Assembly: GCA_963666055.2 (NCBI GenBank)
Contig: CAXWPH010000015.1
Coordinates: 1,344,001-1,408,000 of the forward strand
Source: Acidobacteriota bacterium
GTDB lineage: Bacteria > Acidobacteriota > UBA890 > WLXD01
Length of the DNA stretch: 64,000 bases
Direction of reading: 5' to 3'
Below, piece after piece: positions 9,782 through 62,189 of the stretch (the stretch's first letter is position 1; each line of letters begins with the position of its first letter). The notes under the pieces were generated by a model. It was not told where the DNA came from. It did not search any database and saw only the letters and a program-made list of their open reading frames with translations. Made by a program: the position numbers and the translations under genes.

Positions 9782-9826
9782 ACCGGTACCCGACTGGGCC
9801 GTTACGAGATCCTCGACCGCCTCGGC
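9782..9826 (+). pseudogene. Ser/Thr kinase N-terminal micro-fragment
   Basis: Translates as TGTRLGRYEILDRLG, matching the kinase start at 59562 (PGTRLGHYEILAPLG). Confidence 0.65.
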
Positions 9827-9922
9827 TTTGTTGCGTCGGCCTCTCGCCGCGGGGCCATGCTAGTCGAGAGCCGGCACCACATCTAAGGGGTTTCCGGTGA
9901 CCGCTTGATACTCCCCAACCCG

Positions 9923-11310
9923 CTACTGCCGCCACGCGGGGATATCGAGTTGTGTCGGCGCCGGCACGAGACCCGCCCGGTGCTCCTCGACGATCGACAC
10001 CAAGTCCGCGATCAGCTCGGGGTGATCGGCGGCGACGTCGAACCGCTCGGCGGGATCCTCCTCGACGTTGTAGAGGGCCGGCGGGTCGCGGGCCACCGGC
10101 TGGTCGCCGACGTACGCTGATTGGGTGATGAAGTGCAGCTTCCAGGGGCCCCTGCGCACGGCGAAGAGGCGTGTCCCTCGATAGTAGTAAACGACGTCCC
10201 GCACTTGTTCGCGCTCGCCTCTCATCACCGGCGTCAGATCCACACCGTCGACGATGCGGTCGGCGGGGAGGGGGACGCCGGCGAGAGCCAACGCGGTGGC
10301 ATAAAGATCCATGGTCGTAGCCAGCGCCGTGGAGGTGAGCCCCGCCTCGATGGTGCCCGGCCACCAGGCCAGCGCGGGCACCCGCATGCCGCCCTCCCAG
10401 GTCGTACCCTTGCCGTCGTGCAGCAACCCGGCGGAGCCGCCTTCGAGCTTCTGCGTGATCCACGGGCCGTTGTCGCTGGTGAAGACCACGAGCGTGTTTT
10501 CGTCCAGGCCCGACTCCCGCAGTGTCGCCAGAATCTCGCCGGTGCTCCAGTCAAGCTCCTCGACCACGTCGCCGTACAGGCCGCGCGGGCTGTTGCCCGC
10601 GAAATCCTCGCCGGCAAACAACGGCACATGAGGGAAAGTGTGGGGTAGGTAGAGGAAGAATGGCCGCCCGCGGTTCCTACGGATGAACGCGATCGCTTCT
10701 TCCGTGTAGCGGCGGGTGAGCGTGCGCTGATCAGGTTCCTTCTCGATGGTCTGGACGCCACGCACGAGCGGTAGCGCCGTGTACCCGCGTTCCGCCAGCT
10801 GCGGGTACATCACGGCGCTCATGTCGTTGGAGTAGGGCACGCCGAAGTACTCGTCGAAACCGTGGTTCGGCGGCAGGTGTTCGGGTCGGTGGCCGAGATG
10901 CCACTTGCCGAAGATGCCGGTCGCGTAGCCCGCGGTCTTGAGCGCCTCCGCGATCGTCAGCTCGGAAGCCGGTAAGCTTCCCTGGGAGGGGGAAAGATCA
11001 CCCGGAAGCGGTCGTTGGCCATCCCGCTTCGGATCGGCAGGCGCCCTGTCATCAACGCCGCGCGGCTCGGCGTGCATACCGAGGCGCCGACGTAGAACTG
11101 CGTGAACTTCATGCCCTCGGCCGCCATGCGATCGAGGTTGGGGGTGCGGATCGTCGGGTTGCCGTAAATGCCGAGGTCGCCGTAGCCGAGGTCGTCGGCG
11201 AACAGAATGACGATGTTCGGGAGGTCGGACGGCGAGATTTCGGGCGCTGATGCGCACCCGGGAAGCATGGCCGCGCCGACGACGATCGCGGCAAGCACGG
11301 ATCTGGACAT
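9923..11310 (-). CDS. Arylsulfatase A-like sulfatase (lipoprotein); frameshift at the G-run 10988-10992
   Basis: [33 protein letters not shown] and GKGTTWEGG motifs split over two frames. Confidence 0.9.
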
Positions 11311-11397
11311 GACGCGGGGATTCTAGTCGCTCGATGGGGCTTTCCGAGCATCACGTGCACGCCTTTTCGCCAACCATGGAGCCGATTGCCATGGCGG

Positions 11398-11416
11398 TTC
11401 TTCAGCACCCTGCTAG
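11398..11416. repeat. Solo IS/MITE terminal repeat
   Basis: Reverse complement CTAGCAGGGTGCTGAAGAA resembles the end at 30737 and the 7252 TIR. Confidence 0.5.
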
Positions 11417-11430
11417 TGGACGGACGACCC

Positions 11431-13071: not shown

Positions 13072-13110
13072 TTAGAAGTCCGCTGCTCTATCCAGCTGAG
13101 CTACGGGCGC
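13072..13110 (-). tRNA. 5' half of tRNA-Arg(UCU), truncated after the anticodon loop (att relic)
   Basis: GCGCCCGTAGCTCAGCTGGATAGAGCAGCGGACTTCTAA followed by non-tRNA sequence; no T-arm. Confidence 0.85.
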
Positions 13111-13125
13111 GTGAGAGTTAAGTAT

Positions 13126-13686
13126 CTATTTCACAGCAAGTTGAGACGTATCAGAGAAATCGACAATACGACCAAATCGGCCTGATTGTCCCTTTTCTGT
13201 CCCCTTTCCGCCGGCGAGCCGCCCGAGTGCGCTCCTCAGATCGGCCTCATCGACGATGTCGTAGCGGTCGAAAACGGAGCGCGTCTTGTGACCGGTGATC
13301 GCCATTGCCGTCTTCTCGGGTACGCCGGCGCGGACCAGGTTGCGGACTGCTGTCCGGCGAAAGTCATGCAGCAGCTTGCCCGGGCACCCGGCGGCTTTGC
13401 AAGCTGACGCCCAAGCCTTGCGGAACCCCTTGATCGCCTTTCCATCTCTGTGGAACACGTAGGGACAGATAGTGTCGTCAGCCGTCAGGCGCTGGTGCTC
13501 TTGCCACTGCCGCTCGATGACCTGGACCAGTTCCGGGAGTAGATCGTAGGGAAGTGTTCGCCCCTCAGAGTTCTTCGTGGTTCCGGGTTCGAGCCGCACC
13601 GTTCGCGACGCCCTGTCCACGTGTGCCCAGGTGAGCAGGAGGATTTCTGAGGGGACTCGCCAGCCGGTGTAGTAAGCGAACGTTCC
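13126..13686 (-). pseudogene. Tyrosine recombinase/integrase catalytic domain only (N-terminal domains lost)
   Basis: AYYTGWR, TKN, HDFRR, TGH and FDRY motifs. Confidence 0.9.
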
Positions 13687-13753: not shown

Positions 13754-14479
13754 CTAGAAGAGGGATCGGATGAGGTCCTCGCGGAAGTCCGATCCCGGCG
13801 CCAGGTAGCCACCCAGCACGGCACGACGATGCTCGGACCCCTCCTGCCTGCGGTCGATGAGGACGCTCCCGTCCAGCGCCTGAAAAGCCACGTGGAGGGT
13901 GTCGCCCCGGATCCGGTACCAAATAGTCTCGCCGTCCCGGATACCTCGATCGCGGATCGGCTCGTACTGGGCCTCGATCTCGGGAAGCAGGGTCCGAACC
14001 TCCTCCGACGACAGGAAACCGGCGTCCCGGGCGTGTTCCATGTTCTCGCGAATCCCGTCCAGGAACTGCTCGAGGCTGACGTCGCGGAGGAAGCGGCTCC
14101 GAACCAGCAGGTCCTGGGATTCGACGGCGGCTCGCACGACCGACTCGGCCAGCTCGTCGGTGTACTGCCGGCCGTCAACAAGGTGCTCCAGCTCGGCGGC
14201 AGTCTGCGCTCCGAACCGCAGCGTCAGGCGCAGGACGTCCACCCGGAAGATCGTTCGCTCGTAGACCATTTCCAGGGAGGCGTACGGACCCGAGGCCAGT
14301 CCGGTGGCGTCTACGGGAATCGCGGCGGCGGCGCCTTCGTCCTGGTCCCGGACCGCCGGCGCGCGCCCCGGCACGGCGAGGACGAGCGCCAGCGCCGGGA
14401 CTGCGATCCCGAGGGGTTCCCTCGCGGTTCGCGGGGTGCGGCCGCGGTCGTCGACACCCACCCTCGCCATCGTCAACAT
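13754..14479 (-). CDS. Hypothetical exported protein
   Basis: 241-aa ORF with hydrophobic N-terminal segment, overlapping the upstream methyltransferase stop. Confidence 0.6.
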   Translation of the reverse strand: MLTMARVGVDDRGRTPRTAREPLGIAVPALALVLAVPGRAPAVRDQDEGAAAAIPVDATGLASGPYASLEMVYERTIFRVDVLRLTLRFGAQTAAELEHLVDGRQYTDELAESVVRAAVESQDLLVRSRFLRDVSLEQFLDGIRENMEHARDAGFLSSEEVRTLLPEIEAQYEPIRDRGIRDGETIWYRIRGDTLHVAFQALDGSVLIDRRQEGSEHRRAVLGGYLAPGSDFREDLIRSLF

Positions 14480-15381
14480 CGTTCCCGGGGCCCCGGGTCA
14501 TCCTCCCGAGGGCGGCGGGCGGTGAGCATCGCGTACCGCATCGCCCCGACCCGATACGCCAGCCAGATGCGCACCATCGTCCGAGCGAAGACCCGTTCCT
14601 CCCGGCTCCGGTCCAGGATGAAGCGTCGATAGTCGGAACGTCGGAGGAGCGCTCCAGCGAGCCGGCGGAGACAGATCGTCCACGTCCTCCGGACCTTTCG
14701 GGTGAGGTCCTCGACCTCCACGACCCGGAGGCCGGCCGCCTCCACCGCTGCCCGCAGGCTCGATCCGGTGGGGAGCCACGCCAGCCGGCCCTCCCGGCGG
14801 ATGGGTTCGAGGAGATGCCGCCGCGCCCATCCCGACGGCGCTTCGGCCGCGAGCCAGGCACAGACCACCAGCCGTCCCTCCGGTCTGAGGACCCGTCGCG
14901 CCTCGCGGAACGCTCGACGCGGATCCGCCATGTGCTCGGTGCTCTCGATGGCCAGGACCGCATCGAAGGCTTCCGCCGGCAGCCCGTTGTCGAGCCAATC
15001 CCGAAGCAGATGGCATGGATTCGGGCCCGGCGCAGCACGGACGGCGTACCGGTGCTGCGCCGGCGAGATGGTGAGGGCCGTCACCCGGGCGTCCCTCTCC
15101 CCGGCCAGGAGACGGGCGGTGCCGCCGTACCCCGAGCCGGCGTCGCAGACTTGGTCGCGAGGCCCGATCCCCGCCCGGTCCGCGGCGCTGCGCACCAGTG
15201 CTTCCACCGCCTCCTGCTGCGTCTCCCGGCCGGTGATCCACAGGCCGTGATGCACGTGTTCCCCCCAGAACTCCCGGTAGAAGCGGTCGAGCTGATCGTA
15301 ATGGCGGGCCACCGCCAGTGGTAAGTCAAACACTCGCCCCCCGCATTCACTCGAACTCACACGGCCGACCTTCGCCTTCAT
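14473..15381 (-). CDS. Class I SAM-dependent methyltransferase (tocopherol/sterol methyltransferase-like)
   Basis: HYD...WGEHVHHGLW, DAGSGYGG and AIESTEHM motifs; exact start uncertain. Confidence 0.85.
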   Translation of the reverse strand: MKAKVGRVSSSECGGRVFDLPLAVARHYDQLDRFYREFWGEHVHHGLWITGRETQQEAVEALVRSAADRAGIGPRDQVCDAGSGYGGTARLLAGERDARVTALTISPAQHRYAVRAAPGPNPCHLLRDWLDNGLPAEAFDAVLAIESTEHMADPRRAFREARRVLRPEGRLVVCAWLAAEAPSGWARRHLLEPIRREGRLAWLPTGSSLRAAVEAAGLRVVEVEDLTRKVRRTWTICLRRLAGALLRRSDYRRFILDRSREERVFARTMVRIWLAYRVGAMRYAMLTARRPREDDPGPRERC

Positions 15382-15554: not shown

Positions 15555-15804
15555 GTAGGTGCCGTCTTCGGTGCCGACATCAAAGACCGAGGCTAATGTG
15601 CGGGTGGTTCAGGGCGGCAGCAGCGCGGGCCTCCTGCTCGAAGCGGGCCAGGCGCTCGGGGTCAGAGGCGAACTCGGCGGGTAGCACCTTGATGGCCACC
15701 TTGCGGCCCAGGCGTGTGTCCTCAGCTAGCCACACTTCGCCCATACCGCCAGCACCGAGCTGCTCGGTGATCTCGTAGTGGCCTAGTTTGGTGCCGGGTT
15801 CCAT
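15555..15804 (-). pseudogene. Ser/Thr kinase N-terminal fragment (subdomains I-IV)
   Basis: [45 protein letters not shown], then frameshifted [11 protein letters not shown]. Confidence 0.9.
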
Positions 15805-15867
15805 GGCGCTACCGGAGGATGGTGGATGAGCGCCTGAAGCCTATCGCCGGAGTCTACGCGGGTCCAC
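15805..15867 (-). promoter_or_regulatory. Kinase-family promoter/leader, copy A
   Basis: GTGGAC-N18-TAGGCT then TCAGGCGCTCATCCA...GGTAGCGCC-ATG. Confidence 0.65.
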
Positions 15868-15991
15868 GGAAGACGTCGTCACGGGCTTTTACTAGCGCCG
15901 AATGGCCCATACGCGAGCGTATCGGGAGACCTATATATACGGACGTGGCTCCGCCACCCACACATCGTTGGCAGCCTAGTTCACCCTGGAC

Positions 15992-16093
15992 GGGGACAAA
16001 ATAGGGACAATCAGTCGATCGGAGCGATCCGTTTGATTATCGTGATCCCGATAAGTCCTTTGTTTTCAAGTACCGAGGGAGGGACTCGAACCC
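15992..16093. mobile_element. Relic integrase attachment site with 3' fragment of a tRNA (probably Leu)
   Basis: GGGACA direct repeats at 15993 and 16004; minus strand 16070-16093 reads GGGTTCGAGTCCCTCCCTCGGTAC (T-arm plus acceptor strand). Confidence 0.7.
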
Positions 16094-16172
16094 GATCTAG
16101 CGGATTCTGCTAAGTGGTTGATGGCGCACGGCTTTCGCCGTTTCTCGTTGGCAGGGACTCGCTCACGAGGGC

Positions 16173-18086
16173 TCACGTTGTCGACAACAAGTCCGTCACC
16201 GCCCGATGCGCCTCACCAATGGCAACCTCGGTCATGGCCCACGCGCCCGCGTCGGAGTTGGCGATGGCGATCCGGCCAAAAGGTTGGCGGGCGACGAGCC
16301 ACGGACGACGCTCGGGCGGTAGATCATCGGGTCTCCACGCGACCTCACCCGTCTTCGGATCCTGGCCGTATGCATAGCCGTGTGGCCAGCGATTCACGGT
16401 TATCGCCGCGATGTCGCGCGCCGGGTCGAAGCCTCCGGCTGACAGTATCCGGCCGAGCTGATCCCTGATCTTGCGCTCGAAGGTCGCGAACGTCGTCGCC
16501 AGCAGACGCCGGCGCGCGGCCTTCCACTGCTCAGGCACGGACCGCCCGCGGGCCTCCGGCACCAGGGGAATGCGGAACATACGCACGACGATGGGCTCGT
16601 CAGGCGTGCTCGCGTGTCGGTAGCTCCCAATGCTGAGCGGTCGCTGCACATTAACGTTCTCGAAGTAGCTGCCTGGGCAGCGCACCCTGCTCACACCGAG
16701 CTTGGCGAAGGCGGTCCAGTTGCGGATCAGGACGTTGGTGTAGATAAGGGGCGCCTTGAGTGCGATCGATAGCGCGTGTTTTTGCGGATCCGGCAGTTCC
16801 TCGCAAATCAAAGGGATCACGGCGTTGTAGCAGGCGAGCACGCAACGACCGGCGCGAACTCGCCGGGCGTGGCCGTGGCGGACGTAGGTGACCTCGACTT
16901 CCTTGGCGATTCGCCGATCGCCACGGTGAGCTACCTGCACCGCTGTGCTCTCCAGCCGCACGCGGACAGCCGAGCCCTCCCGATCGAGCTTGCCATAGTC
17001 GAACGGAGCGTCGACAACGTCCTCCATCGTGCTGCCGGAAGCGACCTCTGGGATCAGCGACCGGACGATCAGACGCGCGATTGACGCGTTGCCATCCGGA
17101 AACTGGAAGAAAGCACGCTCCTCGACGGGTTCGGCATCGTCGTCGCCGAGCCCCAGCCCGGTGGTCCCAGGCCAGCTGCCGGCGACGAGCCAGGCGGGGA
17201 CGCCATCGAGGCCGATAGTCCAACCGCCGGAGGTCTCGAGGAAGGAGATTGCCTCGCGACCGACCTTGGCCACCTTCAAGAGAAAGTCCTCGTAGCTCGT
17301 GCGCCGAAGAAACGCGGCCTTCTCCTCCAAGCTGAGGTGGGCCAAGTAATCGATGCTCGAGTCGTGGAGTCGTAGGATGTCATCACGTGCCCCTTCGGAC
17401 AGGGGCGCGCGCGCCAGGAACTCGCGCCAAGAGGGCTCGCCTTCGCCTACTAGCAGGCGATCGGTGCCGAACGTTTCGCGGTCGAAGAAAACCGATCTGC
17501 GCAGGCCGAGCGAGCTGTACAGGTCGCTATCGACGAATTCGGAGTAACGGCTTACGTCGATGCCAATCCCGCGGATCAGGCGCTGGGCTCCTTCACCGTA
17601 CTCGTTCAGGTTGGAGATAAAGACCGTGCCGCCATGCGACAGGAACACCCGACCGTCGAGCCGGAACTCGTTGCGCTTGGCATGACCGCCGAAGTCGTCG
17701 TGGTTGTCGAGAATCAAGATGCGGGCGCCGGGAACAGCTTCTTGATAGAACCACGCCGCCGCGAGGCCGCTGAGGCCACCGCCAACCACGACCAGATCAT
17801 AGAGCTCACCCGTCTCCTCCGCGTTGTCCCAGCGCATGCCTTCGACAAGCTGGTGGGCAACCTCGTAGGAGCCGTCGTGGCTGCCGCGCATACCAGTGCG
17901 GATGGGTGGATACGTGTCGGCGAGGGCCTGTGAGACTCTTCCCGGAGCCTCAGGGCTCGCCAGGGCGTTCGTCTGCGCCCATGGGAGCGTGAGACTGCCG
18001 CTCAGCGCAACGCTGATACCGGAGACAAAGTCGCGACGGTTAATCTCCCGGTGCATCCCGAGATCACGATCATCACTGCTGGACAT
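16173..18086 (-). CDS. Spermidine dehydrogenase SpdH-like FAD oxidoreductase with Tat signal, copy 1
   Basis: NRRDFV, GMRGSHDGS, GGGLSG, DNHDDFGGHAKRNEF, FPDGNAS and VNRWPHGYAY motifs. Confidence 0.85.
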   Translation of the reverse strand: MSSSDDRDLGMHREINRRDFVSGISVALSGSLTLPWAQTNALASPEAPGRVSQALADTYPPIRTGMRGSHDGSYEVAHQLVEGMRWDNAEETGELYDLVVVGGGLSGLAAAWFYQEAVPGARILILDNHDDFGGHAKRNEFRLDGRVFLSHGGTVFISNLNEYGEGAQRLIRGIGIDVSRYSEFVDSDLYSSLGLRRSVFFDRETFGTDRLLVGEGEPSWREFLARAPLSEGARDDILRLHDSSIDYLAHLSLEEKAAFLRRTSYEDFLLKVAKVGREAISFLETSGGWTIGLDGVPAWLVAGSWPGTTGLGLGDDDAEPVEERAFFQFPDGNASIARLIVRSLIPEVASGSTMEDVVDAPFDYGKLDREGSAVRVRLESTAVQVAHRGDRRIAKEVEVTYVRHGHARRVRAGRCVLACYNAVIPLICEELPDPQKHALSIALKAPLIYTNVLIRNWTAFAKLGVSRVRCPGSYFENVNVQRPLSIGSYRHASTPDEPIVVRMFRIPLVPEARGRSVPEQWKAARRRLLATTFATFERKIRDQLGRILSAGGFDPARDIAAITVNRWPHGYAYGQDPKTGEVAWRPDDLPPERRPWLVARQPFGRIAIANSDAGAWAMTEVAIGEAHRAVTDLLSTT

Positions 18087-18238
18087 AGGTCGTCCTCCAG
18101 CTTCTCTGACGCCGTAGCTGCGCGGATCGTCGGTTCTCGAGTCCCTACCGATTCCCCTCGTGTCCAAACTCTACCGTTCCGGAGCCTAATGCCCAGCTGC
18201 GCTGAGCGCCACGGCACGTCGGAGGGGAATCCGCCGAT

Positions 18239-18328
18239 CGTGTCGCGTGCTCGACACACCTGCCCCATACCGCTTTCACCGAGCGGGGCGAGGGTCTCGT
18301 AGTGGCCTAATCGCGTGCCAGGTTCCAT
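18239..18328 (-). pseudogene. Ser/Thr kinase N-terminal fragment (30 codons)
   Basis: MEPGTRLGHYETLAPLGESGMGQVCRARDT. Confidence 0.85.
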
Positions 18329-18391
18329 AGCGCTGCCAGCCGGGGTTGGGTGGGCGCGTGAAGCCTATCGTCGGGGCACGCGGGGGTCTAC
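18329..18391 (-). promoter_or_regulatory. Kinase-family promoter/leader, copy B
   Basis: GTAGAC-N18-TAGGCT then TCACGCGCCCACCCA...GGCAGCGCT-ATG. Confidence 0.6.
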
Positions 18392-18557
18392 GGGCGGGCA
18401 CCGCCGTGGCCCCAGCTTCGCGTGCCGGAACGCCCCGATACCTCAAGTAGTCGACTCCAGTCGACTGGCGTCTACTGGAGTGAACCCCAGTCGTGGAGAC
18501 GTTTTGGAGACGGCAAGTCAGCGACGCGGCGGATCTTGGTGGTCTGCGCTGGGTAGG

Positions 18558-18990
18558 CTACGGCTCCGTCGGCACGAGCCGCTTCAGCTCGTCGAACCAT
18601 TTGAGCACAACTTCGATCTGGGTAACCGGCTCCGCCGGCTCGGAGAATTTGATCATCACAAGATCGCCGTCGGGAGTGATGTCGTAGGCTCGGACGGGGC
18701 TCGTCCAGACCACCCCCGGCGCCTCAAACAACACGCTCGGCGTTCCGAGATCGAGTGTTTCACCGCCGGTGACTGTGACCTCGACGATCATCATCCGCTC
18801 ATACAGCTCTCCTGCTCGATACAAGAGCGCTTGCCCGTCCCTCCCCCACACCGGGCTGGTGCCACCGTTCGTCGAGATCCGTATCTCTGGGTCTGGTCCC
18901 GGGAAAGGCCGCACGTAAATCTCGTGCTGCCCCGTGTGATCGGAGGCATAGGCTAACCACGTCCCAACTGGCGAGAACGTCGGGGGATAC
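18558..18990 (-). pseudogene. C-terminal TolB/PD40 fragment of a Ser/Thr kinase
   Basis: WLAYASD.TG..EIYVRPFPG and terminal VVLKWFDELKRLVPTEP, nearly identical to the end of the kinase at 62189. Confidence 0.85.
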
Positions 18991-19043
18991 GCCCCCGAGG
19001 ACCCCAAGGGGTGTAAGCTCGGGAAAATCGCCGTGAGGGAATT

Positions 19044-19259
19044 ATGTTCGGCTCGATCGGGGGCACTGAGCTCCTCATTATCCTGGTGATCGCGCTCGTG
19101 GCGTTCGGCCCGAAGCGTCTGCCGGAGCTGGGGCGCACGATTGGCAAGGGCCTGCGTGAGTTCCGACGAGCCTCGAACGACCTGAAACGCTCGCTTGAAG
19201 ATGAGATCATGCTCGATGAGCACCGTAGCGAGCGGACGGGTTCTCGCGATACTGACTGA
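19044..19259 (+). CDS. tatA: Twin-arginine translocase TatA/TatB subunit
   Basis: MFGSIGGTELLIILVIALVAFGPKRLPELGRTIGKGLREFRRA. Confidence 0.85.
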   Translation: MFGSIGGTELLIILVIALVAFGPKRLPELGRTIGKGLREFRRASNDLKRSLEDEIMLDEHRSERTGSRDTD

Positions 19260-19371
19260 GCGAGTGAACCGACTGGACGAGTGGTCGGAGTAACCGCGCG
19301 GTGAGCGAGTCTGAAGGCGCGACGATGGCCGAGGACCAGCCGGGAGCTGGCCGGACGAGACGCTACCGGAA

Positions 19372-19484
19372 ATGACGTTGCTCGGTCACCTGACCGAGCT
19401 CCGCCGACGCCTCATCGTCAGCTTGGTGACGTTCGTCATCGGGATGGTGGTGTGCTGGGCGTTCGCGGCGGACATCTACAGGCG
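19372..19484 (+). pseudogene. tatC: TatC N-terminal fragment
   Basis: MTLLGHLTELRRRLI and the first TM helix, then similarity stops. Confidence 0.8.
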
Positions 19485-19616
19485 GATGTCCCAGCTCGTC
19501 CCAGGACGCTGTTCCTGGAAGACCAAGTTCCCGTCGAACGACCAGGCCCATGGGGATTGGATGTTCGGGCTCTTGGTGAGCTGCTCGACCTCCCCGCTGC
19601 CGTCGGCCCTCTGGAT
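19485..19616 (-). pseudogene. Internal PD40/TolB fragment of a Ser/Thr kinase
   Basis: RADGSGEVEQLTKSPNIQSPWAWSFDGNLVFQEQRPGTSWDI aligns with the kinase region around 61560-61700. Confidence 0.7.
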
Positions 19617-20049
19617 CAGTTTGGACCTCGTCTGGACCCTGGCGTTGGGCGTTACCGGCGTGCTGCCCCTGTTGTTGGGGAGTGGGTAACGGCGGGGGAA
19701 CGTGAGCCCCCCGTGATCGCTACGGCGCTATGTCGCTTCGATGAGCGCCTCGATCGCCAGATGCGCCGCGCCGATCGCACCTTCGGTCATCGCTCGTGCA
19801 CGCTCCACAGAGTCATCGGATCGCTCCAGAGGTCGTAGAGCAGCAGTGGGGAGGTGCGCGTATCCGGATCGTTGATCTCCAACGAAGCGCCCCAGTGACC
19901 GTCCACCACCTCGATGACGCCCTCCAGCTCGCCGCCATCGGCATCGAACCCCTGGCGCTCCTCGTTGCTCAGACAAAGCATCCGATCACTACCTCACGGC
20001 CAGACGGGGCAGCGGCACCGTGGGCCTCGACTTTCGGGCGGGCGGGCTT

Positions 20050-21957: not shown

Positions 21958-22124
21958 CGCCGTCTTCCACCTCGTGGATCGAGCCGACCATCGCTCGCAG
22001 ACTCACGGAAACAACACCGCCCCGGAAGGCTCAGGCGGTGATCAAAACACAAAGCCCGCAATCAGAAAAGCGAACCGCAGAAAGACCGGCGGCCAAGAAT
22101 CCGAAGGGCTCGGCGATCACCACC

Positions 22125-22220
22125 CATGGCGATGAAGCGCACGCCGTCCGACTCATCGAACCCGTGGATGGTGGCGATGTTGGGGTGGTTCAGCGAGGCG
22201 AGCAGCTTGGCTTCGCGCTC
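22125..22220 (-). pseudogene. Internal Ser/Thr kinase fragment (subdomains III-V)
   Basis: EREAKLLASLNHPNIATIHGFDESDGVRFIAM, nearly identical to the kinase at about 59727-59822. Confidence 0.9.
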
Positions 22221-27925: not shown

Positions 27926-28011
27926 ATTCACCTCTATGGAAAGGGTGTGTTCGAGAAGCCGGCTCCTCCTGGTCGATTGGGATGAAGTGGAGGCCAGAGC
28001 GGTGAGACGGG

Positions 28012-38354: not shown

Positions 38355-38454
38355 AAGAGCCCCGAGTGGCGGGCCTCGGCCGAGCGGCAGGAGCTGTTCC
38401 TGCTGGCTGGCGCAGCCGGGAAGGTCTGACCTCCGGTCCGCCCGCTCTCGCCTG

Positions 38455-38538
38455 TTGGCTCTCGTCCGGTCCGGCGATAGGCTGCAGGTGCCCAAGCACC
38501 TCTCTCTGGTAGCGCTGGAACCCGGTACTCGACTAGGC
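38455..38538 (+). promoter_or_regulatory. Kinase-family promoter/leader, copy C, with 7 kinase codons (ATG lost)
   Basis: TTGGCT-N17-TAGGCT...GGTAGCGCTG-GAACCCGGTACTCGACTAGGC (EPGTRLG). Confidence 0.7.
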
Positions 38539-38558
38539 CTGCCCTGGAGTCACCCCCC

Positions 38559-47018: not shown

Positions 47019-47813
47019 ATGAACCTCGACAAGAAGACCGCCATCGTAACGGGCGCCGCTCGTGGCATCGGCGCGGCCTGCGCGATGGCGTTCGCAGAGC
47101 ATGGCGCGGCCGTCGTGCTCGCTGACGTTGCTGAAGAGGCGTGCCGTGTCACCGCCGAAGAGATCGCCTCGACCGCTGACGCGCAAACCCTGGCGGTCAC
47201 GGCTGACATCAGCGAGCCGCAGCAGTGTCAGCGTCTGTTCGACGCCTGCATCGACCGCTTCGGCCAATGCGACATATTGCTCAACAACGCCGGCATCATC
47301 ATCGCCGGCTCGATCCTCGACGCCTCGATCGAGGATTTCGACCGGGTTCTGGCCGTCAACCTGCGCGGCGCGTTCCTGCTCAGCAGGTTGGTGGCGCGGC
47401 ACATGGTCGATCAGGGTATCGAGGGCGCAATCATCAACATGTCGTCGACCAGCGCGGTGGTAACGATCCCCGATCAGCTCCCCTACGCAGTGTCAAAAGG
47501 CGGCATCTCACAGCTGACGCGTGTCATGGCAATGGGGCTCGCGTCGCATCGGATCCGCGTCAACGCCATCGGCCCGGGCTCCATCGCCACGGACATGCTG
47601 AAGGAAGTGATGACCAACGACGAGGCGCGCCGGGCGATCCTGTCGCGCACGCCGCTGGGTCGCTTCGGCGAGCCCGACGAGGTCGCCAAGGTGGCGGTGT
47701 TCCTGGCCAGCGACTACGCCTCTTACGTCACCGGGCAAACGGTGTATCCCGACGGCGGTCGCCTGCCGCTCAACTACACGGTGCCAGTGAAAGAGGAGAG
47801 CTCCGACCCGTGA
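47019..47813 (+). CDS. Short-chain dehydrogenase/reductase
   Basis: TGAARGIG, NNAG, YAVSK and VNAIGPG. Confidence 0.93.
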   Translation: MNLDKKTAIVTGAARGIGAACAMAFAEHGAAVVLADVAEEACRVTAEEIASTADAQTLAVTADISEPQQCQRLFDACIDRFGQCDILLNNAGIIIAGSILDASIEDFDRVLAVNLRGAFLLSRLVARHMVDQGIEGAIINMSSTSAVVTIPDQLPYAVSKGGISQLTRVMAMGLASHRIRVNAIGPGSIATDMLKEVMTNDEARRAILSRTPLGRFGEPDEVAKVAVFLASDYASYVTGQTVYPDGGRLPLNYTVPVKEESSDP

Positions 47814-47924
47814 AGAGCGGAACGCACCTCGGCCACTACGAGATCCTCGGGCCGCTCGGTGCGGGCAGTATGGGCGAGCGTGTAACGGGCGCGCGATACG
47901 AATCTTGATCGCGACGTTGCCATC
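47810..47924 (+). pseudogene. Ser/Thr kinase N-terminal fragment with frameshift and stop
   Basis: VKSGTHLGHYEILGPLGAGSMGE / V*RARDTNLDRDVAI. Confidence 0.85.
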
Positions 47925-48031: not shown

Positions 48032-48167
48032 CTACTCCGCATCCGCCCCGCCACATTCCCGCCGATCTACGCTCCAACCAGATACAGTGGGATCGGTATC
48101 TTTTGATAGTGCTCTATCGATGTAGTCTATGCCAAAGATCACTCAGTTACTGGAAGGAGATACAAAC

Positions 48168-53642: not shown

Positions 53643-53699
53643 GATGTGGAATCCGGGGCCGAGGTCGTGCCAAGTCCGCCGAGCTCATCTTACTGGGCG

Positions 53700-53869
53700 C
53701 TAGCAGGCCGTGGTGGAAGTGTCGTGGGTGGGTGACAGCCGAGCAGCGGTACTCTCCGCCAGAGGCCTCCCGTCAACCTCCGTTGGATCTCGCACGCGCT
53801 GACGATAGGCTTCAGGCGCTCATCCAAACCGCTTTGTTAGCGCACCACACTTTCACCACGGCCTGTTAG
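53700..53869. mobile_element. MITE-like element with the same TIRs as 7252-7427 but a different interior
   Basis: CTAGCAGGCCGTGGTGGAAGTGT...CACCACACTTTCACCACGGCCTGTTAG. Confidence 0.78.
53783..53843 (+). promoter_or_regulatory. Kinase-family promoter/leader, copy D, inside the MITE
   Basis: TTGGAT-N17-TAGGCT-TCAGGCGCTCATCCAAACCGCTTTGTTAGCGC; aligns with 59501-59561 and 15805-15867. Confidence 0.72.
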
Positions 53870-53892
53870 GGGCGGCGCCCCGATCGAGCGAA

Positions 53893-54681: not shown

Positions 54682-56336
54682 ACACCGTCCAACGCACGAT
54701 GCTGTTGGGGCTCGTCGTCGGAGGTCTGGTGGCGCCCCATCAGCTACTGGCGCAGGTATCGTACGAGCAGATCCTGAGCGCAGCCGACGAGCCGGACAAC
54801 TGGCTCACCTACAACGGCACATACGCGAGTCAGCGCTACAGTCGTCTCGACCAGATCACGGCGTCGAACGTCGACGACTTGGAGCTGAAGTGGATGCTCC
54901 AGAATCAGGCATTCGGGGCCTGGCAGTCGAACCCGATCGTCGTCGACGGAATCATGTACGTCACCGAGCGACCCAACGATGTCATGGCCGTCGATGCCGT
55001 CACCGGGCGGGTCTTCTGGATGTACCGGTACACCAACGCCCCGAACGCTACCGTGTGCTGCGGCGCCAACAACCGCGGCGTGGCGGTGCTCGACGACAAG
55101 GTGTTCATGGGCACCTTGGATGCGCATCTCATCGCCCTCGATGCGATCAATGGTCAACCGCTGTGGAAGGTCGAAGTCGGGGACGTGAATCTCGCCTACT
55201 CGATCACCATGGCGCCCCTGGTCGTGAAGGACAAAGTGATCGTCGGCGTTGGGGGAGGTGAGTTCGGGATACGAGGCTACATCGCGGCGTACGACGCCGA
55301 CACCGGCGAGGAGGCATGGCGCTTCTACACGATTCCCGGTCCCGGCGAGCCTGGCCACGAGACCTGGGAGGGTGACGACTGGGAGCACGGTGGTGCGCCC
55401 GTGTGGATCACGGGCTCGTACGACCCCGAGCTCAACCTGACGTACTGGGGCGTGGGCAACCCGGGTCCCGATTGGAACGCCGACCAGCGTCCGGGCGACA
55501 ACCTCTACTCGGACACGGTGGTGGCCCTCGACGCCGACACCGGTGAGCTGAAGTGGCACTTCCAGTTCACCCCGAACGATGGTTACGACTACGACTCGGT
55601 TCAGGTCCCCGTGCTGGTCGACATGGACTGGAACGGGGTGCCTCGGAACTTGATGTTGTGGGCGAATCGCAACGGTTACTTCTACGTGCTCGATCGCGTC
55701 ACCGGCGAGTTCCTATTGGGGGAGCCGTTCGTCAAGGTGAACTGGTCGAGCGGTCTGGACGACACCGGAAGGCCGATGCCGACGCCTCAGCCGGAGGGCT
55801 CTCCCACGTGGCCGGGCAACCAAGGTGGCACCAACTGGTATCCGCCCTCCTACAGCCCGCGGACGGGGCTGTTCTACTTTGCCGCCTGGGAGGACTACGC
55901 GACGATCTATCGGAAGGAAGTTTCCGAGTATGAACCGGGCCGCCCCTACCTTGGCGGTGGCTTCAGGGTGCTCGCACCGGCGCCTGGCGCGCCGACGATC
56001 GGTATCGGACGATCCTCCCCGATCAACAACTGGACCGACGAGGTCGGACACGGTGCGGTGATCGCCATGGACCCGCTCACCGGCGAGCCGCGGTGGAAGT
56101 TCGATCAATTCGACGTCAGCGACAGCGGCATGCTGACTACGGCGTCGGACTTGCTGTTCACCGGTGGCCGTGAGGGCTACTTCTACGCGATCGACGCGCG
56201 TAGCGGGGAGCTGCTGTGGAAAGCGAGCCTCGGCGGGCAGATCGTGATGGCACCGATCACGTTCATGGTCGATGGACAGCAATACGTCTCGGTGATCTCC
56301 GGGCACACGCTGGTGACGTTCGGTCTGCCCGACTAA
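54678..56336 (+). CDS. PQQ-dependent alcohol dehydrogenase (methanol/ethanol family)
   Basis: QRYSRLDQI, vicinal CC, GGEFG.RG, WGVGNPGP, GDNLY and TPNDGYDYD. Confidence 0.92.
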   Translation: MNTVQRTMLLGLVVGGLVAPHQLLAQVSYEQILSAADEPDNWLTYNGTYASQRYSRLDQITASNVDDLELKWMLQNQAFGAWQSNPIVVDGIMYVTERPNDVMAVDAVTGRVFWMYRYTNAPNATVCCGANNRGVAVLDDKVFMGTLDAHLIALDAINGQPLWKVEVGDVNLAYSITMAPLVVKDKVIVGVGGGEFGIRGYIAAYDADTGEEAWRFYTIPGPGEPGHETWEGDDWEHGGAPVWITGSYDPELNLTYWGVGNPGPDWNADQRPGDNLYSDTVVALDADTGELKWHFQFTPNDGYDYDSVQVPVLVDMDWNGVPRNLMLWANRNGYFYVLDRVTGEFLLGEPFVKVNWSSGLDDTGRPMPTPQPEGSPTWPGNQGGTNWYPPSYSPRTGLFYFAAWEDYATIYRKEVSEYEPGRPYLGGGFRVLAPAPGAPTIGIGRSSPINNWTDEVGHGAVIAMDPLTGEPRWKFDQFDVSDSGMLTTASDLLFTGGREGYFYAIDARSGELLWKASLGGQIVMAPITFMVDGQQYVSVISGHTLVTFGLPD

Positions 56337-56401
56337 GCGGCCCGAGAAAGATAACCGTTCGAGACATGATGCCCGTCGAATCCAAGAGAAGGAGATCGTC
56401 G

Positions 56402-58642
56402 ATGACCAAGAGCGACTACTCGCCTCGGGTTCCCGATCTCTTTTTGGCGTTGGCCATCGCGTGCCTGCCGGTTTGGAGCACTGTCGCTGCCGCCGGCGCT
56501 GTTCCCACGTCGTTGTCGGCGCTGACCCAGGCGCCGCCCGTGCAGAGGCCGACGTTCCGATCGTCGGTCACCCGCGTGCGCGTCGATACCATCGTTACCG
56601 ACAGCGACGGGAACTTCATAGACGACCTGAGAGCAGAGGATTTCCGGGTCTTCGAGGACGGCGTCGAGCAGGAGATCGTCGATGTCCAGCTCACCAGCCT
56701 CAGGAGTGGGCAGATTACCAACGTCGGCTCGCGCGGCGACATGAACACAGACTCGCTGTCCATTCCGCCAAACCCCGCAAGTCTGGGCGCCATCGTTTAC
56801 TTCATTGACCTACCCAGCTTGGATCGGACAAGCCAGCCGCAGCTCGTGCAGACATTTCAGGACTTCTTCGAAGGAGAGGGCGACCTGGACGTCCCGCAGG
56901 GCGTGTTCATGCTCGACAACACCGGCAGGATTCATGAGCTGGCGCCGCTTACGACCGATCGGGAAGCACTCCGCAACGCGGCGGAGATGGTGTCCAACGC
57001 GGGGGCGTCGACCAGCTCGATCTTCAGCCGGATGACGCGCGAGTACGCGCCGATAATGAAGACGGCGATCGACGCGTTGAATTCTGCGGGCACCGTGACC
57101 TCGGCGAACGAGTCGATTTCTATCCCCGTGCGCGAAGTCATCCTGAGCTTGGAGCGCAAGGCACAGAGAGATGGCGAGATTGAGCGTAAGCGCGCCGAGC
57201 AGACGCTCAAGAGACTCATCGAGCTCACCCACGCTCTGTCGGCGATGGAGGGTCGCAGCGCTCTGGTGTGGATCTCCTCGGGTGCGATGATCACCGAGGG
57301 CGGGCCCTACGCGGCCTTCGCAGCGGCAGTGCGCGAGGCCGTCGGTGCGGAGGTAAGAGCCTCGGCGTTGACCAGGTCATCGCCCGATCGTCGGATCCTC
57401 GGCCTGATGGAGCAGCTCTACGAAGTCGCGAATACCGGCAACGTCAGCATCTACACCATCGATCCCCGACCGATCTCGGAGCTCGGCACCCTCGGCACTA
57501 GAGCAGGAGTCGGCAACAACCAGGTCTCCATCGCGCTGCGGCGAAACGTGCGCCCGGCGTACGGCGACCTAACGGCACCACTCGTTGAGGTGGCCACCAA
57601 GACTGGCGGGTGCGCCTTTATCGGGTGGGCTGATCTCGATCGAGCCTTCGAGGAGCAGTACAACGACTCGACCCAGTTCTACCTGATCTTCTACGAGCCG
57701 CCAGCGCCGCACGAAGACGGGGAGTACCACCAGATCGAGGTACGGGTGGATTCCCCGGATGCCGAGGTACGGGCTCGTCCAGGCTACCGGGAGCTTCCAG
57801 ATTCGGTAACCAAGACCCGCAAGGTAGCCGCTGCGCTGGCTCTGCCCGGCTCGGTGATCGGCCGACCCTTGCCGACCAAGGCTTTCCATCGATTCGCCCC
57901 CGACGGCTCGTCCAAGATCCTCGTAATAGCAGGATTGCCGCGACCCGCGGAAACGGTCACCGGTAGTTGGGCGCCGGCGTTCGGGCGAGTCGATCCGGAA
58001 GAGGACCTTCCCGAGGAGATGATCGAGAGACTCGGCATCTCGCTTTTCAGCGTGCATGCGATCGCCTTGAACCGTGTCAGCGGGGTGAGTGGCGAGACCC
58101 ACGAGGCGGTGCGGCCCGGTGGAGATCTGGGAACGCAGGCGCTGGGCGCGTCGTCACGGTACTTCCACTACACGACGGAATGGTCGGTCGGCCCCGGCAC
58201 CTACGAAGTTCGCATGTTGGTGGCCGAAGAAGTCGGTGATCGCCTGGGTACCTCCAGGCTAGAGGTCGATGTTCCGCCGAGCGAGAATCAATGGCTGATG
58301 GCGGATCCGATGCTCGTGGCGGTGGATACGGGCGCCGGGCTGCTCAGACCCTTGCTGACCGAGAGCGTGCCGGTTGGTACCCGGGTTGCTGTAAGCGTTC
58401 AAGTCAGCGGGGCGGTCGGCCCGCATGTTGCGGCTACGATCCGGTATACAACTACGCAGCAGACCATCGTCGAAGTATCGGCCAAGGCGCTACCGCTCGA
58501 GAGCCCGAGCGTGCACGGCGGTGTTCTTCCTCTGCCGTATCTCGACCCCGGTGAGTACCTGGTCGAGTTGCAGATCGTAGATGCGACAGCTGAAGAGCAG
58601 GCGGTTCGGATGTTACCGCTGCACATAGTGGAGGCCAACTAG
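56402..58642 (+). CDS. Acidobacteria-type VWA domain protein
   Basis: PTFRS.V..V.VD.IVTD.DG.FI.DL..EDF.VFEDG.EQ, TGG, and DGEYH.IEV.V....VRARPGY. Confidence 0.8.
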   Translation: MTKSDYSPRVPDLFLALAIACLPVWSTVAAAGAVPTSLSALTQAPPVQRPTFRSSVTRVRVDTIVTDSDGNFIDDLRAEDFRVFEDGVEQEIVDVQLTSLRSGQITNVGSRGDMNTDSLSIPPNPASLGAIVYFIDLPSLDRTSQPQLVQTFQDFFEGEGDLDVPQGVFMLDNTGRIHELAPLTTDREALRNAAEMVSNAGASTSSIFSRMTREYAPIMKTAIDALNSAGTVTSANESISIPVREVILSLERKAQRDGEIERKRAEQTLKRLIELTHALSAMEGRSALVWISSGAMITEGGPYAAFAAAVREAVGAEVRASALTRSSPDRRILGLMEQLYEVANTGNVSIYTIDPRPISELGTLGTRAGVGNNQVSIALRRNVRPAYGDLTAPLVEVATKTGGCAFIGWADLDRAFEEQYNDSTQFYLIFYEPPAPHEDGEYHQIEVRVDSPDAEVRARPGYRELPDSVTKTRKVAAALALPGSVIGRPLPTKAFHRFAPDGSSKILVIAGLPRPAETVTGSWAPAFGRVDPEEDLPEEMIERLGISLFSVHAIALNRVSGVSGETHEAVRPGGDLGTQALGASSRYFHYTTEWSVGPGTYEVRMLVAEEVGDRLGTSRLEVDVPPSENQWLMADPMLVAVDTGAGLLRPLLTESVPVGTRVAVSVQVSGAVGPHVAATIRYTTTQQTIVEVSAKALPLESPSVHGGVLPLPYLDPGEYLVELQIVDATAEEQAVRMLPLHIVEAN

Positions 58643-58666
58643 CGGGCGCCGGCGCATGGTTGCCTG

Positions 58667-58927
58667 CTAGGCGGCGGACTGCCGTGTGATCCACTCTGCC
58701 AGAACGATCTTCATCAGCGATTGGTAAGGGACGTCGCGCCGATTAGCCTCTCGTTTGAGCTCGTCCAGCAACCAACTTGGCATGCGCATGGTGACTCGCG
58801 AGGTGGACGGCTTCAGAGCCGGAAACACCGCAGGACGTGGGCTGCTGAAGTCCACGAACTGCTCGAGACGATCGGCCTGGCTCTCGAGGTAGGCTGCCTC
58901 GTCGCGGTTCTTCTTCATCGTACCCAT
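58667..58927 (-). CDS. BrnA/CopG-like RHH antitoxin
   Basis: FP.LKPST..VTMRMP..LL..LK.EANRRDVPYQSLMK. Confidence 0.85.
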   Translation of the reverse strand: MGTMKKNRDEAAYLESQADRLEQFVDFSSPRPAVFPALKPSTSRVTMRMPSWLLDELKREANRRDVPYQSLMKIVLAEWITRQSAA

Positions 58928-59203
58928 CTCCTGTACTTGCGCTTAGTCGTCCACGCGGTAATCGGCCGGATCCGATCCTCACGAACAGTGAATGGCACGG
59001 TAATGTGCCGACCGTCGTCGGTGAGGCCAATGAGCCAGAAGCGTGGCTCGGAGTCTGAATGCTGCTGGTCCGGAAAGTAGGTTCCGCGACCATTCAGGAA
59101 CGCGCTCTCGACATCGGCAACGGCGAACCTTCGAGACTTTATCTTGCTGAGGTTGGCTGCATCCCAATCTGGATTCCGCCCTGGCGCGGCCGATTGTGGA
59201 CAT
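58915..59203 (-). CDS. BrnT family toxin; apparent frameshift near 59172
   Basis: DWD..N, HS..EPRF..IG.T..GR and FTVRE..IRPI.A. Confidence 0.78.
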
Positions 59204-59447
59204 AGATCACGAGAGGAGAACACACGTGGTTGTCTCAAAGGGTGACAAGAACAGAGCGAAGGGCGTGGAATGGGTGGGCATCGGCGTTGCACTCGGCGTG
59301 GCGCTGGGGGCGGCCATGGACAATATCGGCGCCGGTATCGCGATTGGCGTCGCCATTGGTGCGGCCCTGGCTGCAGGTCAGCGCGGCAGAAAGTCGAGCG
59401 CCGGACAGGCAGACGAAGATGAGACAGGCGGAAAGCCACCGGAGTAA
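59196..59447 (+). CDS. Small glycine-zipper membrane protein
   Basis: GIGVALGVALGAAMDNIGAGIAIGVAIG; start uncertain. Confidence 0.65.
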   Translation: MDIDHERRTHVVVSKGDKNRAKGVEWVGIGVALGVALGAAMDNIGAGIAIGVAIGAALAAGQRGRKSSAGQADEDETGGKPPE

Positions 59448-59500
59448 CCGAACCCGTGGCACCCTCGGCCGTATCTGGCGAGCTCACGCGGTTCCCTCCA

Positions 59501-59561
59501 TTGGATCTCGCACGCTCCGACGATACGCTTAGGCGCTTACCCACACCGCTTTGGTACCGAC
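59501..59561 (+). promoter_or_regulatory. Kinase-family promoter/leader, copy E (native position)
   Basis: TTGGAT-N17-TACGCT, 32 nt upstream of the kinase ATG. Confidence 0.65.
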
Positions 59562-62189
59562 ATGGAACCCGGCACTCGACTAGGTCACTACGAAATCCTC
59601 GCACCGCTCGGTGAAGGCGGGATGGGGGCCGTGTATCGAGCCCGCGACACCACGTTGGAGCGTGATGTCGCCATCAAGGTTCTTCCGGAGGGCTGGGCCA
59701 GCGACCCGGACCGGCTGGCTCGGTTCGAACGTGAAGCGAAGCTACTCGCCTCGGTGAATCACCCCAACATCGCCACCATCCACGGGTTCGAGGAATTCGA
59801 CGGCGTGCGCTTCATCGCCATGGAGGTCGCCGAAGGCAAGAGCCTTGCTGACCGGATCACGGCAGACGGCCGCATCCGACCCGACGAGGCTCTCGACATT
59901 GCCCGCCAGATAGCCCTGGCGCTCGAGGCAGCTCACGCGGCGGGCGTCATCCATCGCGACATGAAGCCGGCCAATGTCCACGTTGCAGCCGACGGCACGG
60001 TGAAGGTGCTGGATCTGGGGCTTGCCAAGGCCTACGAAGAGGATGGATCAGCCTCTGAGGCCTCGCAGAAGTTGAGCGAGTCACCCACGATGATGGAGGC
60101 TACGCGAGCCGGCGTGATCATGGGTACGGCTCCTTACATGAGCCGGAGCAGGCGCGCGGCAAGCCAGTAGACAAGCGCACCGACATCTGGTCGTTCGGCT
60201 GCGTGCTTCTCGAGATGCTGACCGGACAGCCGACGTTCGCCGGCGAGACGGTGAGCGACGTGATCGCGGCGATTCTCGAGCGCGAGCCCGACTGGGACGC
60301 GGTGCCCGACGATGTTCCTTGGAGGATCGTCGACCTGCTTCGACAGTGCTTGGTGAAGAACGCTGATGGACGGTTGCACGACATCGCCGACGCACGCATC
60401 GGCATCGTCACTGCCATCGCGGATCCGGAAGGCGGTGATGCCCCGCCCGCCCGATCTGATCAGGCCGCAAAGCTCTCATGGCGACGGGCGATTCCGACGC
60501 CGGTGGCAGCTGCAATGGTGGTGGTCGCTGCCGTCGCGGTGTGGGTTGCGACGCTGGGATCCAGCGGATCGCCTGCACCACCGATGACCACCAAGTTGAC
60601 CGTCGAGCTGCCCTCGTACGTGCAGCTGCAGGCCGGCGGGGCCCCCTCACCCCTGGCGATCTCGCCGGACGGCAGGCACCTGGTTTACGGAGCCCAAGAG
60701 GCGGGCGTGTACCGGCTCTATCTGAGGCGGCTGGATGAGCTGTCCGCCACGCCGTTGACCGGCTCCGAAGGTGGCTACAATCCCTTCTTCTCGCCGGATG
60801 GCCAGTGGATCGGAGCTGCGCGGGGCGAGCTGGGCTCCGGACGACACCATCATCCTGTCGCCGGGTCTCCAGACCGGTCTGGCGCGAGTGCCTGCGGCCG
60901 GGGGAGAGCCTGAAGCCCTGACGACGGTGGATTTCGACGACGGGCAGGATTCGCACCGCTGGCCAGAGGTGTTGCCGGACGGCAAAACGGTGGTATTCAA
61001 CATCATCGTCAGTTCGCAATACGACGAGGCAGAGATCGCGCTGCTTTCCCTGGAGACCGGGGAGATCACCGTGCTGCCGGTGGTCGGAGCGGACCCCAAT
61101 TACGTCTCCTCCGGCCATCTGATCATGGGGCGGGGAGAATCGTTGGTAGCGGTGCCCTTCGACCTGCAGCGGCTCGAGGTAACGGGCTCTGCCGTTGTCG
61201 TGGTGGAGGACGTATTCGTCACCGCCGGCGGGCCCGGGTCAGCGTTCTTTGCGGCCTCCGCCAGCGGAACGCTCGCCTACACGCCTATTCGTCCGAACGA
61301 TCGCAGGTTGGTGCTGGTTGATCGGCGTGGTCAACAGCGGCCAATACAACTGGAGCCAGGACCGTTCCTTACGCCGCGCTTCTCGCCTGATGGTCAACAG
61401 ATCGCCTACGAAATCGACGATGACATCTGGATCTACGACCTGACTCGGGAAACGTCCGACCGGTTCACTACGGATCCTGCGATCGACAACACCCCGTTAT
61501 GGGCAGCAGACGGTGAGAGTCTCGTGTTCAGCTCCCATCGGGTCGGGTTTTCGGACCTTTTTCAGAAGCCAACGACGGGGCGTGCTCCGGCTGAGCTCTT
61601 GGCAGCGAGCGTGAACTACCAATATGCCGGCTCTTTTTCTGCCGATGGACGCTTCCTCTTGTACGCCGAGCAGGGACTTACTACTGACTGGGACATCTGG
61701 GTGCTGCCCATGGCGGAACCCGACAAGCCCCGACCGTTGATACAAACGGAGTTTGCCGAGGTCCAACCAAACTTTTCAACGGACGGGCAGTGGATTGCAT
61801 ACCAGTCTGACGAATCCGGTGGCGATGAGATCTACGTCGCGCCGTTTTCCGGCGAGGGTAGACGGGTTCGGATCTCGGGCGACGGTGGGCACTCGCCGTT
61901 CTGGGGACCCGATGGAAGCGAGCTCTTCTTCTGGAGCCAGACCACCAACAGGTTGATGGCCGTTCCGATCTCGTTTGAGCCGGAATTTCAGGCGGGGACG
62001 GCGCAATCGCTGTTGGCCGGCGACTACCTCGTGACAAGCATTACCGGTCGTCTCCAACGAGACTTCGACATTGCGCCGAACGGTGAGGAGTTCGTGATGA
62101 TCCGGGAGAGCCAGCAGGAGGCCCCGGACATCGTCATCGTCCTCAATTGGTTCGACGAGCTGAAGCGGCTCGTGCCGACGGACCCTTAG
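59562..62189 (+). CDS. Hanks-type Ser/Thr kinase with TM and TolB/PD40 propeller; frameshifts near 60143 and 60812 (possible pseudogene)
   Basis: GEGGMG, VAIK, HRDMKPAN, DLG, GTAPYMS, DIWSFG, SPDG repeats and WFDELKRLVP end. Confidence 0.88.

Follow-up and report, generated by a model that had tools for sequence, protein, structure and literature searches.

Ends of a dispersed Ser/Thr kinase-PD40 gene family as likely recombination arms for unrelated cargo genes in an Acidobacteriota genome

Introduction

Integrons carry arrays of short repeats between swappable genes, which receive their promoter from the platform. The minimal mobile elements of Neisseria are described as variable genes that are swapped through homologous recombination in the conserved sequences on either side (PMC3787668); in replacement flexible genomic islands, gene content is exchanged by the same means (PMC4033161). 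The arrays of neisserial intergenic mosaic elements (NIME) and dRS3 consist of scattered repeats for which a role in promoting recombination with incoming DNA has been proposed, and silent mafB/fhaB cassettes share short repeats with the full gene (PMC1797815). In the lpl cluster of Staphylococcus aureus, recombination in a conserved stretch of the tandem paralogs shuffles variable regions, and one-sided illegitimate joints were invoked (PMC2568036). Homology-facilitated illegitimate recombination (HFIR) combines one homologous anchor with one non-homologous joint showing 3-10 nt of microhomology (PMC6382021), and Ku/LigD non-homologous end joining (NHEJ) can capture heterologous DNA (PMC6379672). 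Here we describe a 64,000-nt stretch of an Acidobacteriota genome (the window) in which pieces of a Ser/Thr kinase-PD40 gene family are scattered between unrelated genes. The sequence comparisons suggest that the two ends of this gene, a 70-nt leader with the first codons (left arm) and a 45-nt tail encoding WFDELKRLVPT (right arm), likely act as homologous-recombination arms that move unrelated cargo between kinase sites.

Minimal mobile elements have single-copy flanks and undergo allelic exchange at one locus, whereas the kinase ends are about 90 and about 70 dispersed paralog ends; because of this dispersal the exchange would be ectopic across many loci, with a left arm that carries a predicted promoter and a start codon. 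NIME repeats are non-coding and the maf/fha cassettes provide alternative C-termini of the same protein, in contrast to the gene ends and unrelated enzyme cargo found here. The lpl case matches the mosaic whole kinases, but it uses a central region in one cluster and makes new paralogs, while the kinase ends serve throughout the genome and the gene body gives way to foreign genes. HFIR and NHEJ capture are single laboratory events; here, natural multi-copy anchors appear to be reused and the joints inherited between loci. The kinase ends resemble an integron in outcome, but each arm has its own leader, none of 23 matches exceeded the TIGR02249 cut-off for IntI in the genome (95.7% complete), eight folds of window arms gave no attC-like folding (z -0.54 to 1.42), and there is no fixed crossover point, since joints range from -35 to +375 and identity switches at several leader positions; an integron was excluded on these three grounds. 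The proposed kinase-end exchange works like known homologous-flank gene exchange, differing by its dispersed gene ends and predicted promoter and by the ectopic exchange of unrelated genes. No description of a kinase-end system was found in the literature searched, which lacked most subscription papers.

Materials and Methods

The window corresponds to positions 1344001-1408000 of contig C15 of G000, a 5.73-Mb genome in 15 contigs, in which genes were called with a custom hexamer model. Three congeneric genomes, G002, G003 and G004, were compared over 1.31, 0.17 and 0.39 Mb, respectively, fetched mostly around kinase matches; G001 is a fragmented short-read assembly. Joints were compared with short-read contigs of several sets, including X1 (the closest match, which may be the source sample), X2 (a second study) and X4.

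The leader profile was built from the 70 nt upstream of intact kinases, and copies carrying the sigma70-like pattern were among its sources. Contig C8 of G000 is mirrored near position 48250 (identical genes, summed coordinate 96499), probably an assembly artefact, and its half beyond 48250 was excluded from leader and stub counts. Fragments were compared between the kinase and 11 other multi-copy families in one pipeline with at most eight queries per family.

Results

Eight kinase pieces and one long broken copy had been listed in a first-pass annotation of the window, made from the letters alone, and six-frame translation found all of them in place, with five starting at codon 1 or at most three codons from the start, as claimed (Table 1). 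Missed in that annotation were a leader of about 70 nt in front of three stubs (15804, 18328 and 38518) and a copy at 53777-53843 that consists of the leader alone. Pfam matches in three frames of the long copy correspond to an N-terminal Pkinase domain and a C-terminal PD40 propeller, the architecture that defines the family; the nearest Atlas clusters of an intact paralog are likewise Pkinase plus PD40, with Acidobacteriota as the commonest taxon. One member of the cluster of a window protein also bears that phylum name, and a search of genome contigs with ilvA gave distant relatives only, at 57-63%.

Throughout G000 the leader was found in 90 copies, 28 before whole kinase domains and 62 cut off at points between -35 and +375, of which 57 fall within 200 nt of the ATG. 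Kinase-domain fragments start at codons 1-3 in 55 of 76 cases. At the other end, 49 remnants reach the C-terminus, 39 of them with no more than 67 codons; they contain a near-invariant 45-nt core, and short open frames lie upstream of the 3' stubs. This 3' arm has about 70 copies, and together with the leader and first codons it is the best-conserved part of the family. Whole-gene loci number 29 (15 in a single frame). Of the 49 3' stubs, 21 have a 5' stub on the same strand at a distance of up to 6 kb upstream, and a single one has a 5' stub there on the opposite strand.

The single-pipeline count gave 49 short kinase fragments per 36 full copies, a ratio of 1.36, with 37 fragments in the first tenth of the protein and 7 in the last (44 in either), versus 0-5 fragments in each of the 11 other families (0-0.25 per full copy). 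Fragment density that simply follows copy number, with evenly spread breakpoints, had been named as the observation that would speak against an anchoring role; this explanation fails, given the bias of breakpoints toward the ends and the excess over other families. In a control with planted, held-out kinase pieces of 60-150 nt, recovery stayed level at 75-100% of positions up to about codon 240; uneven detection therefore does not explain the 5' bias within the kinase domain.

Tail and leader patterns, which were derived from G000 and hence favour it, gave 69 and 68 matches in G000, 29 and 40 in G002, 13 and 15 in G003, and 18 and 14 in G004; the fragmented G001 had 2 and 5. In genomes from outside the genus, 0-2 matches to the leader pattern were obtained. 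Six leaders begin in-frame fusions of 393-843 aa to non-kinase proteins. Among 24 downstream genes scanned as cargo, 21 had a Pfam match, with a predominance of hydrolases and oxidoreductases; the enzymes include sulfatases, serine hydrolases, an amidase, an amine oxidase, and pyrroloquinoline quinone (PQQ) and flavin adenine dinucleotide (FAD) enzymes. Two sulfatase genes of about 840 aa (L148:8305-10836 and L150:4882-7404) are fused in frame to the first 20-24 kinase codons at different joints.

Comparison with a contiguous 820 kb of G002 located the kinase features in mosaic islands between syntenic blocks of 14-64 kb. For leaders sharing the same upstream flank (27 pairs), the downstream sequence differed in 18, matched in 6 and was a whole kinase in both members of 3; in several of the 18 switched pairs, cargo in one genome stands where the other has a whole kinase. 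Conversely, 27 of 33 leader pairs with the same cargo have different outer flanks upstream, unlike the one-locus exchange of minimal mobile elements. Sharing was measurable in 30 of these 33 pairs: in 22 it stopped no more than 33 nt upstream of the -10 box, in 2 it reached 64-72 nt, and in 6 it continued past 400 nt. The 22 pairs, which form nine cargo groups (one borderline), have a mean identity of 91% in the cargo and 73% in the promoter core, and their sharing is like that of random leader pairs, for which the 95th percentile is 33 nt upstream of the -10 box. In island genes with no kinase feature upstream, breakpoints were scattered over 1.5 kb. At the 3' tail, all eight pairs with 500 nt of common cargo at 94-99% identity stop sharing within 45 nt of the stop codon. 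By this sequence signature, with identity ending in the arms, the pairs agree with homologous exchange in flanks.

Individual joints recur at different loci. A 181-aa gene boxed by kinase codons 1-32 and the tail is present in G000 on C6 and C14 (98%) and in G002 (96%), with identity ending at the tail. The joint of MEPGTKLG with the same cargo was found in three genomes behind three different leaders and flanks, and at one site G004 has a whole kinase where G000 has a stub and cargo. A 3.2-kb duplicate on C6 and C15 (99.8% identical) begins inside the leader and ends mid-gene. Synteny to G002 is broken at 43 of 50 stubs versus 116 of 185 other island spacers (Fisher p=0.002, with sites that are not independent). 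The recurrence of stub-cargo joints at different loci, together with sharing that ends in the arms, indicates that the kinase ends are likely crossover arms.

These end-of-sharing positions, recurrent joints and flank switches bear out one half of the earlier proposal, namely that the kinase family is a dispersed repeat that anchors recombination; the anchors are the promoter-plus-start arm and the 45-nt tail, and the DNA that moves is unrelated cargo. The other half, a reservoir for shuffling sensor domains, was not supported, as most stubs have fewer than 70 codons and carry no sensor. Whole kinases are nevertheless mosaic: across the 29 whole loci, identity in the kinase shows no correlation with identity in the propeller (rho 0.045, 406 pairs), and in 12 paralog pairs the kinases are at least 85% alike with propellers below 60%, while 3 pairs show the reverse. 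Sensor shuffling therefore runs among whole paralogs and does not require the stubs.

The leader has sigma70-like -35 and -10 boxes 17 nt apart, and the T, A and T of the -10 box are invariant among 15 aligned copies. Boxes at a spacing of 16-18 nt were found in 54 of the 62 truncated leaders and in 26 of the 28 that precede a whole kinase domain, a count to be read with the fact that the profile itself was built from such copies. The leader is therefore predicted to give a captured gene a promoter.

The features of the window are listed in Table 1. The first stub sits between ilvA (8168-9700) and a convergent sulfatase gene; the downstream neighbours of ilvA differ in G002-G004, and those of the sulfatase differ in G001. 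The 3' part of the window methyltransferase has a 99% identical copy in G002, at another locus and behind a different kinase stub. The oxidoreductase joint after kinase codon ~30 recurs behind other kinase starts at G000:C13:42.9k and G002:C9:1412.9k. The tatA/tatC piece is 95% identical to the operon at G000:C14:128669-129129, with more copies at G000 C2:401.7k and in G002. The EPGTRLG stub lies upstream of a serine hydrolase gene (PF00144 fold, 38682-40367), and the stub at 47810 is absent after the same short-chain dehydrogenase/reductase (SDR) gene in G003. The leader-only copy occupies the same site in G002, a case of vertical inheritance. At the syntenic site of the long copy, G002 has only the last ~127 codons, adjoining the end of a miniature inverted-repeat transposable element (MITE).

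Table 1. Kinase-derived features and cargo genes of the window
Feature	Positions	Strand	Evidence
Kinase 5' stub, codons ~3-16, without leader	9782..9826	+	Six-frame translation; bridged in X1, X2, X4
Cargo S-adenosylmethionine (SAM) methyltransferase behind 15555 stub	14473..15381	-	
Kinase 5' stub, codons 1-83, subfamily A	15555..15804	-	Six-frame translation
70-nt leader, predicted promoter; TGGACC 15866-15861, 17 nt, TAGGCT 15843-15838	15805..15876	-	
Cargo FAD/NAD-binding oxidoreductase	16173..18086	-	
Kinase 5' stub, codons 1-30, subfamily B	18239..18328	-	Bridged in X1
70-nt leader, predicted promoter	18330..18396	-	
Kinase 3' stub, last ~134 codons, conserved WFDELKRLVPT tail, end KWFDELKRLVPTEP	18558..18990	-	Covered in X1, X4
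Captured tatA and 5' tatC piece, inverted between two propeller remnants	19022..19481	+	
Internal propeller remnant, profile positions 697-741	19485..19616	-	
Internal kinase remnant, codons 56-87, 98% identical to intact paralog at C8:31.5k	22124..22220	-	
Leader and EPGTRLG stub, ATG lost (stub letters 38518-38538)	38448..38540	+	
Kinase 5' stub, codons 1-38, overlapping SDR stop	47810..47924	+	Bridged in X1, X2
Leader-only copy before cytochrome c/PQQ dehydrogenase genes, within MITE-like ends	53777..53843	+	
Leader of long kinase copy	59491..59561	+	
Kinase-transmembrane-PD40 propeller pseudogene	59562..62189	+	Six-frame translation, Pfam

Short-read contigs with 0-1 differences bridge 9680-11198, 18056-18439, 18570-19132, 19443-19933, 47750-48851, 49594-54941 and 55882-59590; X2 shows five of these seven joints and part of 18570-19132, while the 15555-15804 joint was unbridged among the short-read matches listed. 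Since contigs of two studies span most joints, the suspicion that the fragments are assembly chimeras, raised with the first-pass annotation, fails, and an assembly artefact is refuted for the bridged joints. The description of the long copy as frameshifted held in part: it occupies three frames, and the second break (~60813), where about 75 nt are missing relative to a G004 homologue, is real in X1 and X2, but the first frameshift (~60142) is likely an assembly error, because the exact-matching X1 contig has one extra base.

Other elements of the window were recorded. The genes at 16173-18086 and 20050-21957 are members of the most numerous non-kinase family detected in G000, the FAD/NAD-binding oxidoreductases with 30 copies. 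Half of a tRNA-like sequence lies beside a tyrosine integrase remnant at 13072-13599 and a tRNA 3'-like piece at ~16068-16095 (tRNA reading by eye), which look like attachment scars of an old integrative element; ARAGORN found nothing in the 64-kb window, and an Rfam search of it gave no match. MITE-like elements with CTAG-flanked inverted arms are present at 7239-7440 and 53699-53869, out of ~219 such loci in G000 with mostly 150-300 bp between the ends. The element at 53.7 kb encloses a kinase leader and persists in G002 as arm vestiges only; no autonomous parent with MITE ends was found within 3 kb. Four tandem paralogous open reading frames, one of them short (55-61% GC, without Pfam match), occupy 27362-32313 on the minus strand. 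A small toxin-antitoxin-like gene with a CopG antitoxin match is located at 58667-58918, and the small gene pair at 37709-38211 is presumably of the YefM/YoeB type. On C15, a 1.26-kb repeat, likely an insertion sequence (IS), is found at 80066-81328, 208766-210027 and 332495-333762; it is 100% identical in G000 and G002, while their syntenic blocks are ~92% identical, suggesting recent transfer between species.

Discussion

The exchange of cargo through kinase ends is, in our assessment, the likely explanation of these joints, and several observations weigh against it. Behind the 62 truncated leaders, the next gene points in the direction of the leader 44 times, not above the 68.5% baseline, and promoter capture is therefore not general. 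The islands are plastic without any kinase, with 63% of their non-kinase spacers broken relative to G002, and six cargo groups are plainly inherited vertically. Among 45 recent two-copy duplications in G000, with 90 ends in all, contact with a kinase feature was seen at only 8 ends, versus ~4.6% expected, a weak excess. By eye, ten stub-cargo joints with a donor-like copy (87-100% identical) have 0-3 nt of microhomology or a small number of unmatched bases, below the 3-10 nt given for HFIR (PMC6382021). One G002 kinase remnant adjoins a MITE end. Finally, the relatives were covered in part, with a bias to kinase sites, and the pairs share ancestry and are not independent.

Several of these points would fit passive erosion, in which kinases expand in plastic islands, deletions stop at functional neighbours and the stubs are idle afterwards. 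The broken spacers and the lack of an orientation excess downstream of truncated leaders agree with it, as do the clustering of stubs in islands that also contain IS elements, tRNA pieces and remnants of integrases, and a G002 kinase that collapsed to both its ends around a small inverted piece. Erosion does not account for identical joints that follow distinct promoter paralogs and flanks and whose identity stops in the arm (22 of 30 and 8 of 8 pairs), and the 11 other families do not show the pattern. We regard it as improbable in its own right, but it is probably still one step of the best explanation.

The sharp 5' edges of both arms, the same-strand arrays (for example C10:1.5-20 kb, with seven of seven leaders on one strand) and the many tyrosine recombinase-like matches in the genome could instead point to a site-specific recombinase or nuclease, rather than RecA, that acts on the leader or tail and inserts cassettes in the manner of an integron integrase or the Neisseria dRS3 recombinase. 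The absence of any match above the TIGR02249 cut-off among the 23, the lack of a significant hairpin in the eight folds, and truncation points and identity switches spread over varied positions make such an enzyme quite unlikely.

Adjacent deletions and composite transposition driven by IS or MITE elements are a still poorer candidate for making and moving the stubs, and we hold them to be very unlikely. The ~219 MITE-like loci, the MITE end beside what G002 retains of the window kinase and the IS next to some G002 leaders speak for them. However, no end sequence is common to the 62 truncated-leader joints, a MITE end follows at just one of them (53843), and 7 of the 15 island spacers that carry a MITE are broken, a share not above that of other spacers. 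The arms also have one fixed edge and a variable other end, not the inverted repeats and two fixed ends of such elements.

Long-read chimeras or collapsed repeats, which the mirrored C8, the probable consensus error in the window and the 14 of 29 whole kinase loci in more than one frame might suggest, are scarcely credible as the source of joints that are bridged by short-read contigs of two studies and present in the independently assembled G002, G003 and G004.

For the exchange through kinase ends, the following steps may be proposed. A rare non-homologous joint would first place a DNA segment, in many cases derived from the same genome or that of a relative, within a kinase gene, whether by deletion, by end-joining capture or as the far end of a homology-facilitated event. 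Deletions would then erode the dead kinase middle, and the short ends would be kept because they give the cargo a promoter or start codon and leave it recombinogenic. A RecA crossover in one arm, paired either with a further crossover in the opposite arm or with an illegitimate joint, could finally copy the cargo into any other kinase site and replace what followed there, with donor DNA supplied by kin through transformation or by the chromosome itself. Crossovers of this kind would also swap propeller domains between whole paralogs. HFIR or NHEJ capture would fit the tatA piece and the 3.2-kb duplicate, though the far end of the duplicate falls within a gene with a possible paralogous partner; other cassettes carry arms on both sides. 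Genes for ComEC, DprA, MutS, Ku and LigD are present in the genome, with ComEC and DprA also matching in most control genomes. Loss of mismatch repair was rejected as a cause, as all 21 of the 21 genomes over the cut-off have an intact mutS (with an internal stop in one and a split gene in another).

We read the end exchange as a by-product of kinase expansion that is exploited by cargo, not as a dedicated machine. A bolder idea, which we offer tentatively and with more doubt than confidence, is an integrase-free analogue of the integron: in this genus, the two kinase ends would form ~160 genome-wide sockets, with a promoter and start codon ready in the left arm; enzyme genes would spread between sockets and species by RecA alone; the arm set would be kept by selection on the cassettes, and kinase expansion would drive growth of the flexible genome.

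Such loci are undercounted in short-read assemblies, as in G001 with 2 tails and 5 leaders versus 13-69 and 14-68 in the genomes with few contigs. They provide natural, countable events for gauging how frequently short, diverged anchors (45-150 nt, 75-95% identical) allow ectopic insertion. Arm exchange would explain the turnover of gene order in the islands and predicts sites of strain variation. More generally, a lineage-specific gene expansion could build and reshuffle a flexible genome without a mobile-element enzyme, and an acquired gene would get a promoter on arrival.

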